64,000 bases of DNA from an uncultured Pseudomonadota bacterium. GTDB lineage: Bacteria > Pseudomonadota > Alphaproteobacteria > RF32 > CAG-239. A program made the position numbers. Where the stretch lies: positions 240,203-304,202 of the forward strand of contig CACWQS010000002.1 of NCBI GenBank assembly GCA_902763155.1, given 5' to 3'. Shown here in pieces: positions 19,264 through 28,200 of this stretch (position 1 is the first letter of the stretch; every line of letters starts with the position of its first letter).

Positions 19264-22200
19264 TAAAGGCATTTTAAATGCAACATGATAGGCGCGTTCC
19301 TGACAAATAAGGAGCGCGCTATATATTTCTTAAAAAAATGCTAGACAAAAAAAGTTTTATGTGCTATATTACACTCAAGAAAGTAGGTTCTTTATGACTG
19401 AATAAGGAGATTGATATGGCTGATACCCCGAATTTGGAAGATATTTATGAGATTTTGAGCAAAGATAGTCCGGAAACTGCAGATATTGACCGGTTTAAAG
19501 CCTTAATTGATGTAAATACCGCATGGAAAGACGGTATTCCTGATGATTTTATGGCCAAAGCTTTGCCAAAGTATAGTAAGCCGGTGCAGTTGGGCAGATT
19601 ATCAAAAGACAGCGCCGGGCAAATAGCTAATATTGCCAAGAACCTCAAAGCATTAGGAGCCGAAGATACCTTAAAGCATTTTGTTAATGATACCAATTCT
19701 CCGAACGGCGAAACCGTTGCGACTTACTTGGCGCACCACATTGTGCGTGCACAAGCACGGCTTGATAAAGGCAAACTAAGTGAAGACGCTAAAAAAGAAA
19801 TTGAAGAAGCTCTTGGGGGGCAAGTTGCCGCACTGAAATCCATAGCCGAGCTGAAAAATGCCGATAATTATACAGTAATTGACTGGGCTAAACCGAATAA
19901 GCGTAACCAAACAGCGCGTGATTTGATGAATATATATGACCAAGGGGCTTTATGGCATAACGAACATTTGCCGGAAGGTGAAACACCGTTACCTGAACCA
20001 TCGCGACAGTTGGCAGATATTGTACCGGCACCGGAAGATACCAACGTTGACGGCTTAACAAATAATCAACCAGCGCAAAAAATTGCCAATGTTGATCCGA
20101 ATGCTTCATTAGATGAGGATACCAGAAATACCAAATACAACAAAGATAGAAGAAACCGTGATATTAAGCCGAAAGATGTGGTCGATTTCTTCTACGAAGA
20201 TATTTTCCTTTATTATCTGAATTTGTGGACCGATAAACTGCTTAATTTGCTTGATAATGCAGCTAAGGCTTATGCTGAAAGAACCAAAGCAGCAGCCAAA
20301 GAGGCTGATCTGAAAGCAGAGTCGTTGAAAGGTGACGAAAAGAAAGCCGCCAAAAAGATTGCTGCAATGTTTGGAAATACCGAAGCGCTCATCAATGCTT
20401 ATGATGCTAAAATTGATGCTATGATAAAATTACCACAAGCAATTGATAATGAAAGGAGTACTAAAGGAAGTGATTTTGATAAGTGGTTCAAAGATGATGC
20501 CGGCAATCCGCTACCAATAAAGGATGCTGATGGCAATATAATTATTGATACCCATGTTGCCGATGCCAGCGGTAATCGCGTACCAAATAAAGAATATAGG
20601 GGAGTTGTAAAAACAATTACCGACGAAGCTCGCAATAATCCGGTCAAATTTAATGAAGCCCTAAACAGAAGATTATCGATGAGTGATAAAGATGCTGAAA
20701 AATTAGCAAAAGTAAATAAAGCTTTACACAGAATTGCGGTTAATAATGCCACGCTCAAATTAGCTCAACAATACTTGTTGCGAGGCGATAAAGCGTGGAT
20801 TGATGAACCAATGCCTAATTTGGAAAAGTTAGTTGCCATCGAGATGAGTGATTTGCAGACGTCATTAAAGGCTGTGACAGCTATGGTTGGTGACCAGAGT
20901 CAAGCCAAAGGGTTAAGTTCGGCAAATGAACAGAAGTTGTTTGAAGCATCTGTAATGAATTTCATTAATAAGCAAATTAGAATTGGTGATGAGGCACGCA
21001 TAGCCATTTTAGACGATGCAACAAGTAGTCGTTTCGGCTTTAATAATACTAAACCGAAAAACTTTGTATCTCCTAAAAAACTTGATATTTTAAATAATAT
21101 GCAAGAGACGATGGATGAAATCGGCAAACACTATTTCGCTGAAGATGAAAAAGGTAACTTAAGGACATTTTATGAACTTGGTCAAGCTGCTCGACGTGAA
21201 GCAACCGGCTCTTTGGACGTTATTGCTCGTCAGCTTAATACAATGAGTGAGGGAATTGATGCCAAATTTTTGCAATTAAGTGAAAATAGAGGAAAACTTG
21301 ACGATATGAAAAAGAGTAACAAGGAAGTGAATAAACTGGTTAATCAAATTGTAAAGAATAAACTGTTTGATAAGATTTTCGGTAAGTAGATGATGATTAA
21401 AAAGCTCTTTCATATCGTGTTTGCAATTATATTTTGTGCGTCGTTTACTGCATTTGTAATGACAGCATTTTATTTCGCTTATTTGCATTTTTACCATATC
21501 AATATCATAACGGCGAAGACGTATCACAATATAGCAAAATATTGGAACAGCGGCGCTATCCTGACCGGTAATGATTTGTTGATGCTGTTCGGTATATTTT
21601 GCATAATACCGATAAATTTGGTCGGTTGGTGGGTAATATATCACATGAAATATGCTAATCTGTGGTTTGGGCCGCTGTCTTGGCTCGGCAGCCTTGGTAC
21701 CAAAGATTACGAAGCTCCTGATGTTAACATTAAAAATTTGAAGGTCGAAGAAAAAAAGACCATTGACCAAATTGTTAATGAACGTCTGGAATTGGAAAAA
21801 AAGAAAACTCCTAATTTGGAGGTCGGGCATTTTCGCCAAGATATTATTGAGCAGATTGAACAAAATCGTAAGTGATTGTGGATACGAATTATTTGGGCAA
21901 AAATAATGTATACAAATAAAAGATGTCTGTCATTCTCGAGCGATAGCGAGGGAATCTAAGGCCACATAACGGAAAGTGGCAATAAATTTAAGAAATTCTT
22001 GTTTATATTGCGAATTAACTGCCTGTTGCCAGAGATCCCCTCATTCGCTGCGCTCATTCGAGGATGACAGCGGAAAATATAATTTTTAAACATAACCGTA
22101 ACCACTTATTAAAAAAGTGCAAAATTCTGCAAATGTAATCACTTTTTTAATAAATGGCTGTTAGTATGGCTATAACCGGACGTATGTAAAGGAGAGATAT

Positions 22201-25200: not shown

Positions 25201-28200
25201 AGCCATTATTGACGGACCGGCAGTCGGTCGTGGTCAGAAAGTTTCATATTTACTGATTGGACAAGATTTGGGGCAAATTTCCGGTAAATACGGTAAAGAT
25301 GACTTGGAAACGGTGATTTCTACCACCGCCTGCAAAGTTATTTTATCGCAAAACAACGAAGTAACGGCACAGCGCTTTTCTAAGATGATCGGTAACAAGA
25401 CCATGCGTGTGTCTTCATTTTCCAGAACTGAAGGCAGTTTGGGTAAAGACTTTAATCCGCTCGCCAAAAACGTGAGCTACCAACTGCAAGCAGTTCCGGT
25501 TATCAGTTCAACCCAACTTTTGAGTTTGCCAATGTTAAAACAAGTGGTGCTGATGCAAAGTTATATCGACCGCCCGATTATTGCCGATTCGCCTCGTTGG
25601 TATTTGGATAAGAAGATGAAGAAGCTTGCCTCCTTGCCACCGTGCCCTAACGTGCCGGATTGGATTGTGGCACAACGCGAAGATATCAATGACGATATGC
25701 TGGCTAAGCTTGGTATAGACTATGACCCGAATGCCGAGGAAGAAGGCGCTTTTGAGGTTGATGAAGTATAGACGATTCGCATAATGCGGAAAAATAAAAA
25801 CTCCTTTTGCCCACGAGCAAAAGGAGTTTTTCGTAAAGTGTTCCGAAGAACAGATTATCTTGAATAGAATTCGATAACCAAGTTCGGTTCCATCATAGCA
25901 GCATACGGAACATCTTCAAACTTCGGCATAAATGTGTATTTAGCCGTCAATTTTTTGCTATCTACTTCCAAATATTCCGGCCAATCACGAGTTTGCGATT
26001 CAACAGCTGCCAAAACGCAAGCTAACTTTTTAGATTTTTCGCGAACTTCAATAACATCGCCTACCTTAACCATGTATGACGGAATATTAACTTTTTTGCC
26101 GTTAACGGTCACATGACCATGGTTCACAAATTGGCGAGCGGCAAAAACCGAAGACGCAAATTTTGATTTATAAACCAAATTATCCAAACGAGATTCCAAC
26201 AAACCAATCAGGTTTTCTACGTTATCGCCTGAACGACGGATAGCTTCAGCATAGTATTTGTGGAATTGCTTTTCCGAAATATTACCGTAATAAGCCTTCA
26301 GCTTTTGTTTAGCAATTAATTGTTGACCATAGTCGGTAACTTTTGCTTTTCTTTGTCCGTGTTGTCCAGGACGATATGATCTTTTGTTAAACGGGCTGTT
26401 TGCATCACCCCATAAATTTTCGCCATAACGGCGGCTGTTTTTCTTTTTAGCAGCAACAATACTTTTCATTTCAAATTTCCTTTTTTATTATTAACATTAT
26501 TGTCCCGATAGTCTTTGGCATTCACCCAAAAACGAGACCATCACAAAAAATGCTTCGCGACAATCTGCATCCTCGGAAGTAGGGTCAACATACAGTATTT
26601 TTTTTTGAAATTCAAGCAAAAAATATATGGATTTTCGCAAAAATATACTTATAAATAAGAGTAACGAGGGAAAAATGTCGTATGAACTGATGTTTCAAAA
26701 AGCTGTAGAATTGCAACAAGTCGGCGCTTTTAGCGAGGCTGAAAAATTGTATCGGCAAATTTTGGAGGCTGCACCGGAAAACGTTAATGCGTGGAATATG
26801 TTGGGGCTGGTTGCACAAGCAAAAGGTTTGCACGAACAGGCAATTGAATGTTTTGAACAGGCGCTGAAAGGCGCGCCTCAACATTTTCCGCTCTATTTCA
26901 ATATGGCAATTTCGTTTGGTGCACTTGGCAAATTTGCCGAGGCATGCAAAGCATATTATAAGGTGTTGGCGCTCAATCCGCAAATTAAGGAAGCGCATAT
27001 CGGTCTTGGCAATATTTATTGGCAAAAGGGCAATTTAGACAGCGCCAAAGCGGCTTATGAACAAGCATTGAAAATTGATGCAAATGATATAACGGCGCAG
27101 GTAAATTTAGCAGAAATTTGTGATGATACGACGACTTTGACGACACTATCATCTGTCAGTGCAGATGCGGTATATTATTTGGCACGGCGGGCAATCGGAG
27201 CCGAAAATATTGCTGAGGCAATAAAATATTTACGCCAAGCCGATGGTATGAGCGAATCGGCAGAAATCAAGATTTTACTTGGCGAGGCGTTAGAAAAAAA
27301 CGGACAAACCGATAGCGCTTTAAGAACCTATTATCAAGCATTACAGTTGCACGAAGATGATAGCGTTTTGGTACACATTGCCGATTTGGAAGCTCAAAAG
27401 GGCGAATCCGCCACAGCAGAAAAAATGTATCGCCAAGCCTTGCAACATAATCCGCAAAACTTGTCGGCTCACACCAATTTAGCCAATTTATTATGCGCCA
27501 AAAATCGAACTGTGGAAGCGTTGGAAGAATATCGCCAAGCCGTTTTGATTTCCCCGCAAACACCGGAAATCAGTTACAATTTAGCTTTGGTTTTGAAGTC
27601 GCTAAAAGAATATGAGCAAGCGTTGGAGTTGTTTTTTCATGCTTTTTATACAGCTCCAAATCGAGATGACTGGGCACTCAATATTGCCGAAACATTGAGC
27701 GAATTTGCAACTTTTGAACTGGAAAAAGCACGCACAATTGCCGAAAATTGGCGGCAAAAAATGCCGGAGCACACGGTTGCCAAACATATTTCCGCCGTTT
27801 TAAACAATAAAGCAAGCGATACGGAAACAGCTTATAACAAATTGCTTTTTGATAATTTTGCGCCAAGCTACGAACAGACTTTGCAAAAAATTGGCTATGC
27901 TGTGGTTGAAAAAATTGTTGAATTATACGCCCCGATACAAGGTGAAATTTTAGATTTAGGTTGTGGCACCGGTCTGCTGGGAAAACGCTTAAAAGCAGTG
28001 GGAAATAAGATTATCGGGGTAGATATTTCGTCACAAATGTTAGCTTTTGCAAAACAAAAAAACGCCTATGACGAATTGGCGGAAGATGATATAACCCATT
28101 ATTTACAAACTCACAAAAAAGAGTTGCCACCGACCATTGTGGCGGCTGATGTTTTTTGTTACTTCGGCGATTTAGCGCCGTTATTTAAACTCTGTGCACC

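Follow-up and report, generated by a model that had tools for sequence, protein, structure and literature searches.

A chromosomal VirD4-type ATPase and two paralogous membrane proteins as a candidate substrate-recruitment cassette in uncultured gut Alphaproteobacteria

Our analysis deals with a four-gene cassette on a 64,000-nucleotide stretch of the chromosome of an uncultured alphaproteobacterium (GCA_902763155.1, contig CACWQS010000002.1, positions 240,203 to 304,202; this whole stretch is called the window in the following). In their order, the genes encode a charged soluble protein of 657 amino acids (aa; p657), two membrane proteins of 161 and 448 aa (p161 and p448) and a 736-aa VirD4-type ATPase. 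Type IV coupling proteins (T4CPs) such as VirD4 decide what a type IV secretion system (T4SS) exports, and the choice of cargo is understood for few systems: TraD-TraM, TrwB-TrwA and DotL-DotM/IcmSW. The gene layout shows a VirD4 ATPase gene that appears to be co-transcribed with the genes of two paralogous proteins, each with two transmembrane (TM) helices, and the ATPase is more conserved than the housekeeping genes beside it. We consider the chances about even that this cassette serves substrate recruitment, as the coupling module of a secretion apparatus that is fixed in the chromosome, inherited vertically and derived from the VirB/D4 (type IVA) systems.

A first-pass annotation of the same DNA had described the cassette as a coupling-protein locus. 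The four open reading frames (ORFs) lie where it had placed them, and the strings that it had quoted (PPGTGKTAGVVVP, LFVLDEFPQMPK, IGQDLGQISGKYGKD, FFPMLITGWWTLCLVEW, IIPINLVGWWVIYHMKY) are all present.

The coupling ATPase and its partner proteins

The identity of the ATPase is well supported. The protein matches the Pfam families T4SS-DNA_transf (E 1.5e-57; 196 bits at a cutoff of 20.1), TrwB_AAD_bind (62.4 bits at a cutoff of 20.5) and TraG-D_C (78.1 bits at a cutoff of 22), and in a ranking of NCBIfam models the VirD4 and TraG families reach 96-143 bits, compared to 22-29 bits for TraD of the F or SXT type. In a tblastn search against 72,556 plasmids, the top three matches were proteins of alphaproteobacterial megaplasmids (32-33% identity over 94-98% of the length, E down to 1e-105), the two best being the final gene of virB2-B3-B4-B5-B6-B8-B9-B10-B11-virD4 clusters on Sphingomonadales plasmids. 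Alignment of profiles with hhalign extended over 629 columns of the Erythrobacter VirD4 (probability 100%, E 6e-83, 35% identity), and relative to the plasmid protein revealed a clade-specific insertion of ~50 residues (~residues 300-352). Hydrophobic segments at residues 15-50 and 87-118 in a TM scan point to an N-terminal membrane anchor, and the C-terminal tail is acidic with a net charge of ~ -10 in the last 30 aa. Together, the Pfam, NCBIfam and hhalign results bear out the first-pass assignment as a bona fide T4CP, and no clustering with FtsK- or HerA-like ATPases was found. In contrast, the proposed resemblance to DotL did not hold, as hhalign aligned the protein to TrbC of IncI1 (ColIb-P9), which we take to be a DotL-type T4CP, over only 65 columns around Walker B (probability 4.3%). 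Because of the 629-column match to a VirD4 from an operon compared to the 65-column match to TrbC, we class the protein by its sequence as a VirD4-type (type IVA) coupling protein and not as a DotL. Structure-based approaches contributed little: the AlphaFold model, built from a shallow alignment (identity of at least 73%), was too poor for use (predicted local distance difference test, pLDDT, of 47), helices 8-47, 51-66, 69-84 and 91-113 being the sole well-modelled part. PDB searches with the single sequence and with a profile returned nothing and are uninformative, as a bona fide operon VirD4 used as control also remained without a match.

For p448, which is encoded directly upstream of the ATPase, neither Pfam (E <= 0.1) nor NCBIfam, PADLOC or the PDB sequences gave a match, and a PDB profile search found nothing significant. 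The family alignment (42 sequences) reveals four parts: i) an almost invariant N-domain, for which AlphaFold2 predicts helical hairpins (residues 2-35, 40-51, 59-95 and 97-106; pLDDT ~70-80), ii) an invariant basic juxtamembrane motif, iii) a charged linker of ~170 residues, which is modelled as disordered (pLDDT <50 for residues 111-282) and is hypervariable save for one invariant acidic-hydrophobic motif (IDHALFKFDDDDDDFDLDIDSFEK), and iv) a C-domain with the modelled order alpha-beta-beta-beta-alpha-beta-alpha-beta (pLDDT 80-94). The poly-Asp (FDDDDDDDFDLDIDSFEK) and Arg/Ser-rich stretches mentioned in the first-pass annotation are also found in p448. Since the juxtamembrane motif is basic, the positive-inside rule would place the linker and the C-domain in the cytoplasm, on the side of the nucleotide-binding domain of VirD4.

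The C-domain model contains the alpha-beta-beta-beta-alpha-beta core of the PD-(D/E)xK (NERD-like) superfamily. Its fold neighbours are Can2, Card1, Cap4, Shedu and restriction enzymes, and a precomputed match to Pfam NERD (PF08378) exists for 4 of the 120 p448 homologues listed. Within the close family, D310 and D325-K326-E327 are conserved. However, K326, the only lysine nearby, is not placed canonically, and distant members have A, H, T, P or N instead; a conserved catalytic D...(D/E)-x-K set is absent from the family when the motif is aligned by eye on secondary structure. Because the canonical lysine is not there, binding is more likely than cleavage, and this domain may bind rather than cut. 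Domains of the same type also occur inside TPR-X-Roc-COR-TIR proteins (P0438, P0456, ~residues 600-850) and at the N-terminus of AAA+ ATPases (P0507, P0508). By virtue of this sharing, the C-domain is a mobile module that is used in conflict-type architectures too.

The smaller membrane protein, p161, has no match in Pfam, NCBIfam or PADLOC. Its proposed paralogy to the TM domain of p448 is suggestive only in a pairwise BLASTP comparison (E 0.013, 18% identity, collinear over residues 1-83) and was confirmed when the two family profiles were aligned (hhalign probability 99.0%, E 4.8e-18, 104 columns). In distant clades, the upstream position is held by a full-length two-domain p448 paralogue of ~370 aa. 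Based on this finding and the profile match, the p161 of the window clade reads as a truncated copy that arose from a tandem duplication.

The first gene of the cassette encodes p657, a protein without any hydrophobic segment in the TM scan and with a composition rich in A (11.4%), K (10.5%), D (9.4%) and N (8.2%), and in L as well. The earlier description as a Lys/Asp-rich protein at the head of the locus was thus right, but p657 is not truly of low complexity. It is a charged orphan instead, for which Pfam, NCBIfam, PADLOC and PDB searches, including a PDB profile search, gave no match. Its family is highly divergent (17% mean column identity, lengths of 430-1069 aa). In 74 loci, the interval between its gene and that of p161 ranges from -4 to about +20 nt, and the two genes almost always abut or overlap. 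The one conserved property that we found is a disordered C-terminus of neutral to positive charge. The last 30 aa carry a mean net charge of +3.5, which is never negative in 68 homologues, compared to a mean of +1.2 in a background of 601 neighbouring proteins (Mann-Whitney p = 4e-12, with the reservation that homologues are non-independent). Such a basic tail would be consistent with a C-terminal signal that is read by a VirD4-type receptor, although it is no proof of one, and among candidates for a cognate substrate or adaptor, p657 ranks first. The term 'effector-like' of the first-pass annotation is putative, this C-terminus being its one pointer.

Conservation and genomic surroundings

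To define the distribution of the cassette, the p448 alignment was scanned against one genome per GTDB species, which gave 373 relatives, 80 of which were retrieved. All 80 stem from gut or rumen metagenome-assembled genomes (MAGs), mostly labelled as Alphaproteobacteria bacterium, uncultured Rhodospirillaceae or Azospirillum sp. (and one as Bacteroidaceae), and presumably represent the 'RF32' group. The order p161-like, p448-like, T4CP is found in all loci long enough to show it, with operon-like spacings of ~ -4, 56 and 12 nt along the cassette. An exhaustive profile search yielded 411 cluster representatives of the p448 family, including remote members with the same architecture, and a metagenome scan seeded by these remote members added 80 gut or rumen loci, in which the downstream gene is always a T4CP where the contig is long enough. 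The T4CP is hence preceded by a dedicated membrane partner, as the first-pass annotation had it, and this pairing is kept across hundreds of genomes.

Conservation declines from the T4CP through p448 and p161 to p657: identity to the window proteins is 69-95% for the T4CP, 38-78% for p448, 20-81% for p161 and ~20-36% for p657, the last range excluding the closest relative and p657 often being undetectable. In one relative (L014), the T4CP is 85% identical, compared to 80% for the neighbouring sigma factor and 68% for RluD. Across loci of 32-58% GC it retains at least 55% identity to the window protein, whereas the nearest plasmid VirD4 shows 32%. In this uncultured and widespread clade of the gut and rumen, a VirD4 has become a fixed chromosomal gene, under stronger constraint than neighbouring housekeeping genes. 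The flanks consist of housekeeping genes that differ by sublineage (gyrB/rpsD here, cysS/pnp in L001 and rluD/dnaE in most others), no p448 relative was found on plasmids or viral contigs, and none of the four cassette proteins matched a PADLOC model. Together with the pattern of divergence, this identifies the cassette as a vertically inherited chromosomal operon and as neither a mobile element nor a defence island. The GC content of the cassette (~0.37-0.45) does not depart from the rest of the window.

In most genomes, two extra genes on the same strand precede the cassette and encode a ~90-aa TM protein and a ~314-aa soluble protein. The window orthologue of the latter (p314) has been detached by a rearrangement and now lies 14 kb off, between a sigma-factor gene and rluD. 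Its identity to the genes that precede the cassette in L014 and L029 is 61-62%; it has no match in Pfam, NCBIfam or PADLOC, and a PDB profile search found nothing significant. On the other side, many loci (L043-L088, L098-L175) carry two conserved genes directly after the T4CP gene, for proteins of ~200-350 aa and ~144 aa, neither of which is found in the window genome; the ~144-aa protein, present in many lineages, shows a faint hint of SUKH/SMI1.

Besides VirD4, the window contains one other homologue of a T4SS core component. Pfam annotation, which covered the whole window and 10 kb past each edge, identified a VirB8-family protein encoded 29 kb from the cassette. It is related (E 5e-20) to VirB8 from the plasmid virB operon in which the nearest VirD4 is encoded, and it is conserved across the clade. 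In 5/5 loci examined, the gene stands beside nrdDG in a divergent pair with the gene of a 631-663-aa Ig-domain lipoprotein, which may be an envelope partner. A role of the window lipoprotein as VirB9 analogue was rejected, as there is no BLASTP similarity to VirB9. In addition, VirB2-B11 of two plasmid systems were searched with phmmer in ~2.5 Mb of sequence from related loci, which comprised fragments around the cassette and around VirB8. The matches were VirD4 and VirB8 only, except in a sister lineage of 53% GC (L143). There, a cluster on the minus strand (2050-5273) encodes a VirB9/CagX protein with a C-terminal SPOR domain, a VirB8, a 71-aa lipoprotein and a second VirB8, and is situated among housekeeping genes 5 kb upstream of the cassette. 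The VirB8 of the window and the VirB9 and two VirB8 near the cassette of L143 make a scattered T4SS plausible. The first-pass annotation was correct in stating that no VirB or Dot genes adjoin the locus, though a VirB8-family gene lies in the same window; with it, at least one T4SS core gene is there, and the suggestion of a dispersed T4SS gains some support. In the window (52867-56423 region), the gene of an alpha/beta-hydrolase lipoprotein follows VirB8; homology to either of the hydrolases of L143 was rejected by BLASTP.

The spacer between the p161 and p448 genes measures 325 nt in the window and is the longest among 76 loci (median ~56 nt). It contains an insertion that the first-pass annotation had called similar to a miniature inverted-repeat transposable element (MITE). 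The element folds as a long hairpin (free energy -57.9 kcal/mol, z = -5.07) and is missing at the homologous spacer in relatives (L001, L011). Searches of the window and of 175 loci and one metagenome scan (29-mer with 3 mismatches, blastn-short, terminal-inverted-repeat pattern) turned up no further copy, and no target-site duplication is evident around the element. Two Logan contigs from independent assemblies start at element position 3, i.e. break at its edge, which is the sole hint of repetition. The MITE label is therefore supported with regard to the non-coding hairpin, the inverted ends and the absence in relatives, but not with regard to multiple copies or a target-site duplication, and we regard the element as a recent hairpin insertion of MITE-like form, with putative mobility. 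A different insertion of ~100 nt occurs at the same spacer in L009 (~4920-5040), which suggests that small hairpin elements have landed in this spacer repeatedly.

Downstream of the MITE-like element, the same spacer contains an AT-rich inverted repeat, which is invariant in relatives whose flanking proteins are 69-78% identical. It is confined to the closest sublineage, with occurrences only in contigs of the window genome itself and in L001, L002, L003, L009, L010 and L011. This repeat may be an operator, an internal promoter or another regulatory site for p448-virD4, and it is a better regulatory candidate than the MITE-like element. The coordinates of all these features are compiled in Table 1.

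Table 1. Features of the cassette and of related genes in the window (positions refer to the window)
Feature	Position	Strand	Description
gyrB	16807-19266		upstream neighbour of the cassette
Terminator-like hairpin after gyrB	19291-19320	+	11-pair stem, 7 G-C pairs, T-rich tail behind; upstream operon boundary
Two sigma-70-like promoter matches	19300-19370	+	CTGACA-16-TATATT and TAGACA-17-TATATT; 10/12 each, consensus matches only; ahead of the p657 gene
p657, 657 aa	19416-21389	+	ORF; first gene of the cassette
p161, 161 aa	21390-21875	+	ORF; two TM helices (TM scan), short charged tail
MITE-like hairpin insertion, 146 nt	21926-22071	.	13-nt inverted ends (CTGTCATTCTCGA / TCGAGGATGACAG), 12/13 matched
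AT-rich inverted repeat	22102-22157	+	18-nt arms, 20-nt spacer, 94% complementary; directly ahead of the p448 gene
p448, 448 aa	22201-23547	+	ORF; TTG start, AGGAG seven bases ahead
p448 N-domain, residues 1-106	22201-22518	+	almost invariant; two TM helices, helical; CNWHFD and GWW motifs, then basic KRKSYKQIRP
p448 linear motif IDHALFKFDDDDDDDFDLDIDSFEK, residues 179-203	22735-22809	+	invariant I179...K203, acidic-hydrophobic, hypervariable flanks
p448 C-domain, residues 283-448	23047-23544	+	~165 residues; PD-(D/E)xK (restriction-endonuclease-like) fold; invariant loop GDWLADEE.FNGE.PLWFSE.SHR.SPV
T4CP (VirD4-type), 736 aa	23561-25771	+	ORF
Walker A of the T4CP, residues 169-176	24065-24088		G172 T173 G174 K175 T176 invariant in 22 sequences
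Walker B of the T4CP, residues 534-540	25160-25180		D538 E539 invariant in 22 sequences
Terminator hairpin, interval between T4CP gene and rpsD	25796-25831	.	16-bp stem; downstream operon boundary
rpsD	25855-26469		convergent to the T4CP gene; downstream neighbour
p314, 314 aa	40038-40982	-	soluble protein, no known domain; orthologue directly upstream of the cassette in most relatives (~78-nt spacing)
Lipoprotein with Ig-like He_PIG domain, 635 aa	52867-54774	-	lipobox LAGC; divergent pair with VirB8
Solitary VirB8-family protein	54896-55672	+	bitopic, TM residues 40-68; PF04335 52.4 bits at a cutoff of 23.2

Several other genes of the window are worth recording. A type IVb (R64/TCP-like) pilus cluster on the minus strand (585-8967, extending to the left) encodes a TcpQ-like protein, a secretin, PilO (PAP_PilO), a 520-aa protein without assignment and a T2SSE ATPase, with T2SSF and a 181-aa protein of the cluster just beyond the window edge; three further uncharacterised genes (9810-13604) lie upstream of rplQ. 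Also on the minus strand are the genes of a 255-aa ankyrin-repeat protein (61158-61925) and of a 236-aa protein with an animal-type serum amyloid A domain (29332-30042; PF00277, E 4.6e-17). Ankyrin-repeat proteins are often T4SS effectors in host-associated bacteria. A cluster of RimB-like, 7TM-transglutaminase and ATP-grasp (RimK-like) genes at 31451-34499 is represented by the same genes near the cassette of L001. At ~14700-15220 both the GC skew and the gene orientation switch, and parAB, gidAB and dnaE are located 5-10 kb to the left of the window; for these reasons a replication origin may be near, and a scan for DnaA boxes found no cluster. An Rfam scan of the whole window identified no families.

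Proposed mechanism and its rivals

If the cassette serves as the coupling module of a VirB/D4-derived apparatus, VirD4 would be anchored in the inner membrane as a hexamer, with p448 and p161 beside it in the same membrane as lineage-specific auxiliaries ('D4Aux'). These would take the role of DotM/DotN, TraM or TrwA while being non-homologous to them. The PD-(D/E)xK-fold domain of p448 would dock or process the cargo, which could be DNA or a basic-tailed protein, and basic C-termini may dock at the invariant acidic motif in p448 or at the strongly acidic VirD4 tail. p657 would be the leading candidate for the substrate or adaptor. Finally, the cargo would be handed on to the envelope components of a putative channel that are encoded elsewhere: VirB8 in the window, and VirB9 with two VirB8 in the sister lineage. 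In this picture, the homologies, the operon structure, the conservation, the fold and the paralogy come from the analysis itself, and the physical association, the topology, the cargo and the channel are deductions.

A number of points weigh against this proposal. Contact of VirD4 with p448 or p161 is a prediction. The p448 C-domain has a nuclease fold without a conserved catalytic lysine, so that DNA cleavage or binding is putative, and the candidate role of p657 as a substrate has been deduced from charge and evolutionary rate. Moreover, VirB4, VirB6, VirB10 and VirB11 were found neither in the window and the 10 kb beyond its edges nor in the ~2.5 Mb of related-locus fragments, and VirB8 is solitary in 5/5 loci examined. 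The last two points also speak for a repurposed, T4SS-independent machine, in which VirD4 would act with the two paralogous membrane proteins as an autonomous translocase of the inner membrane or as a motor that handles DNA, without a VirB channel. Such a machine might, for instance, move DNA or protein to the periplasm by export or import, perhaps with a hand-over to another envelope conduit such as the secretin of the type IVb pilus cluster in the window. The proximity of that cluster would fit, as would the partnering of VirB8 with an unrelated lipoprotein, the unusual conservation of VirD4 together with its clade-specific insertion, and the fusion of the nuclease-fold partner to a membrane anchor. 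Nevertheless, we judge it unlikely, because the VirB9 and two VirB8 5 kb from the cassette in L143 and the VirB8 of the window argue for a retained T4SS envelope complex, and we know of no T4CP that works without a VirB4-type channel. A bolder claim, and in our view a distinctly improbable one, is that VirD4 and p448/p161 represent a new coupling machine, where a membrane-tethered PD-(D/E)xK-fold protein stands in place of the soluble relaxosome. This could be realised either as (a) a membrane-anchored partner of non-HUH type that processes DNA and passes chromosomal DNA on to a minimal and scattered T4SS or as (b) a VirB4-independent inner-membrane translocase. If true, version (a) would mean that a DNA-release or DNA-exchange system is fixed in a whole clade of gut Alphaproteobacteria, and both versions would give T4CP function an architecture without precedent.

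The remaining explanations carry far less weight. The first-pass annotation had compared the locus to the DotL/DotM coupling subcomplex of type IVB systems, and the architecture is indeed analogous, with a membrane protein with charged cytoplasmic regions ahead of a T4CP and a type IVb (R64-like) pilus cluster in the window. At the level of homology this is contradicted, for the ATPase as described above and for p448 by a profile match of 0.4% probability to IncI1 TrbA, presumably a DotM-type protein, and by the absence of DotM among the fold matches; we give this idea next to no credence. A defence or conflict system, with a membrane-tethered nuclease-fold effector that is powered or gated by a P-loop ATPase, would account for the recurrence of the p448 C-domain in TPR-X-Roc-COR-TIR and X-AAA+ proteins and for its fold neighbours. 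It is highly improbable in view of the lack of PADLOC matches for the four proteins, the universal vertical conservation at a fixed position among housekeeping genes, a pattern that sets it apart from defence islands, and an ATPase that is a full-length VirD4 orthologue including TraG-D_C. Very unlikely as well is a remnant or active mobilisation module, similar to an integrative and mobilisable element, that combines the T4CP with p448 as a MOBC-type relaxase and uses the T4SS of another cell or element like CloDF13 MobB/MobC. MOBC relaxases belong to the PD-(D/E)xK superfamily (PMC12857230), whose fold the p448 C-domain shares, and mobilisable elements typically combine a T4CP with a relaxase in the absence of a T4SS (PMC12857230). 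However, the cassette is fixed in ~370 species-level genomes between housekeeping flanks, without integrase, att sites or cargo genes, its divergence tracks the hosts, p448 has no plasmid or viral homologue and no conserved catalytic lysine, and the GC content resembles that of the window.

Comparison with known systems

The closest relatives of the ATPase are the VirD4 proteins of VirB/D4 systems (type IVA, MPF_T) on the megaplasmids of Sphingosinicella (p1) and Erythrobacter aureus, with which it shares the TM anchor, Walker A and B, the all-alpha region and TraG-D_C. In contrast to these plasmid genes, the cassette gene is chromosomal, vertically inherited and separated from virB genes, and its product contains the ~50-residue insertion and a strongly acidic C-terminal tail. 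Furthermore, p448-family genes always precede the cassette T4CP, whereas none are present in the plasmid systems. The ATPase thus belongs to the known VirD4 family, while no description or annotation was found for the p448/p161 partner family. A search of the available literature retrieved no paper on the T4SS of this clade or on orphan T4CP-NERD pairs.

In its genomic setting, the cassette is reminiscent of the rvh T4SS of Rickettsiales, which is likewise alphaproteobacterial, chromosomal and vertically inherited. The rvh vir genes are distributed over several loci, VirB8 is duplicated, as it is in L143 with two copies, and virD4 is part of a virB8-B9-B10-B11-D4 operon. Here, by contrast, virD4 is joined by unrelated partners, VirB4, B6, B10 and B11 were not observed in the sequence searched, and the hosts are gut-lumen MAGs. 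The cassette offers a test case for how much scattering or reduction a T4SS tolerates with VirD4 still in place.

With regard to the partners, a PD-(D/E)xK protein coupled to a T4CP-like ATPase is known from MOBC relaxases (pAD1 TraX, CloDF13 MobC) and MobB/MobC (PMC12857230). p448 recalls them in its fold and differs in that it is membrane-anchored, lacks the conserved catalytic lysine and has no plasmid homologues. Acidic C-terminal tails like that of the ATPase recruit relaxosome accessory proteins in the F-plasmid TraD-TraM and R388 TrwB-TrwA pairs (PMC12857230), although Pfam and NCBIfam detected no TraM, TrwA, ribbon-helix-helix accessory protein or relaxase at the cassette. With the Dot/Icm system of Legionella (DotL with DotM, DotN, DotY, DotZ and IcmSW), the cassette shares the concept of a T4CP with dedicated auxiliaries, part of them embedded in the membrane, that offer charged substrate-capture surfaces (PMC12857230). 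There is no homology, the folded domain of p448 has a nuclease fold, and neither IcmS/IcmW-type adaptors nor dot/icm core genes were seen among the Pfam annotations of the window and 10 kb on each side.

Auxiliaries of T4CPs are a general principle (PMC12857230). By analogy with DotL-DotM/N or TraD-TraM, the module would act as a type IV coupling complex, with auxiliaries that are unrelated to any described. If the partners bind VirD4, they would constitute a third, independent solution to substrate recruitment and provide a handle on what these abundant, hitherto unstudied bacteria of the gut secrete and into whom, be it the host, protists or other bacteria.

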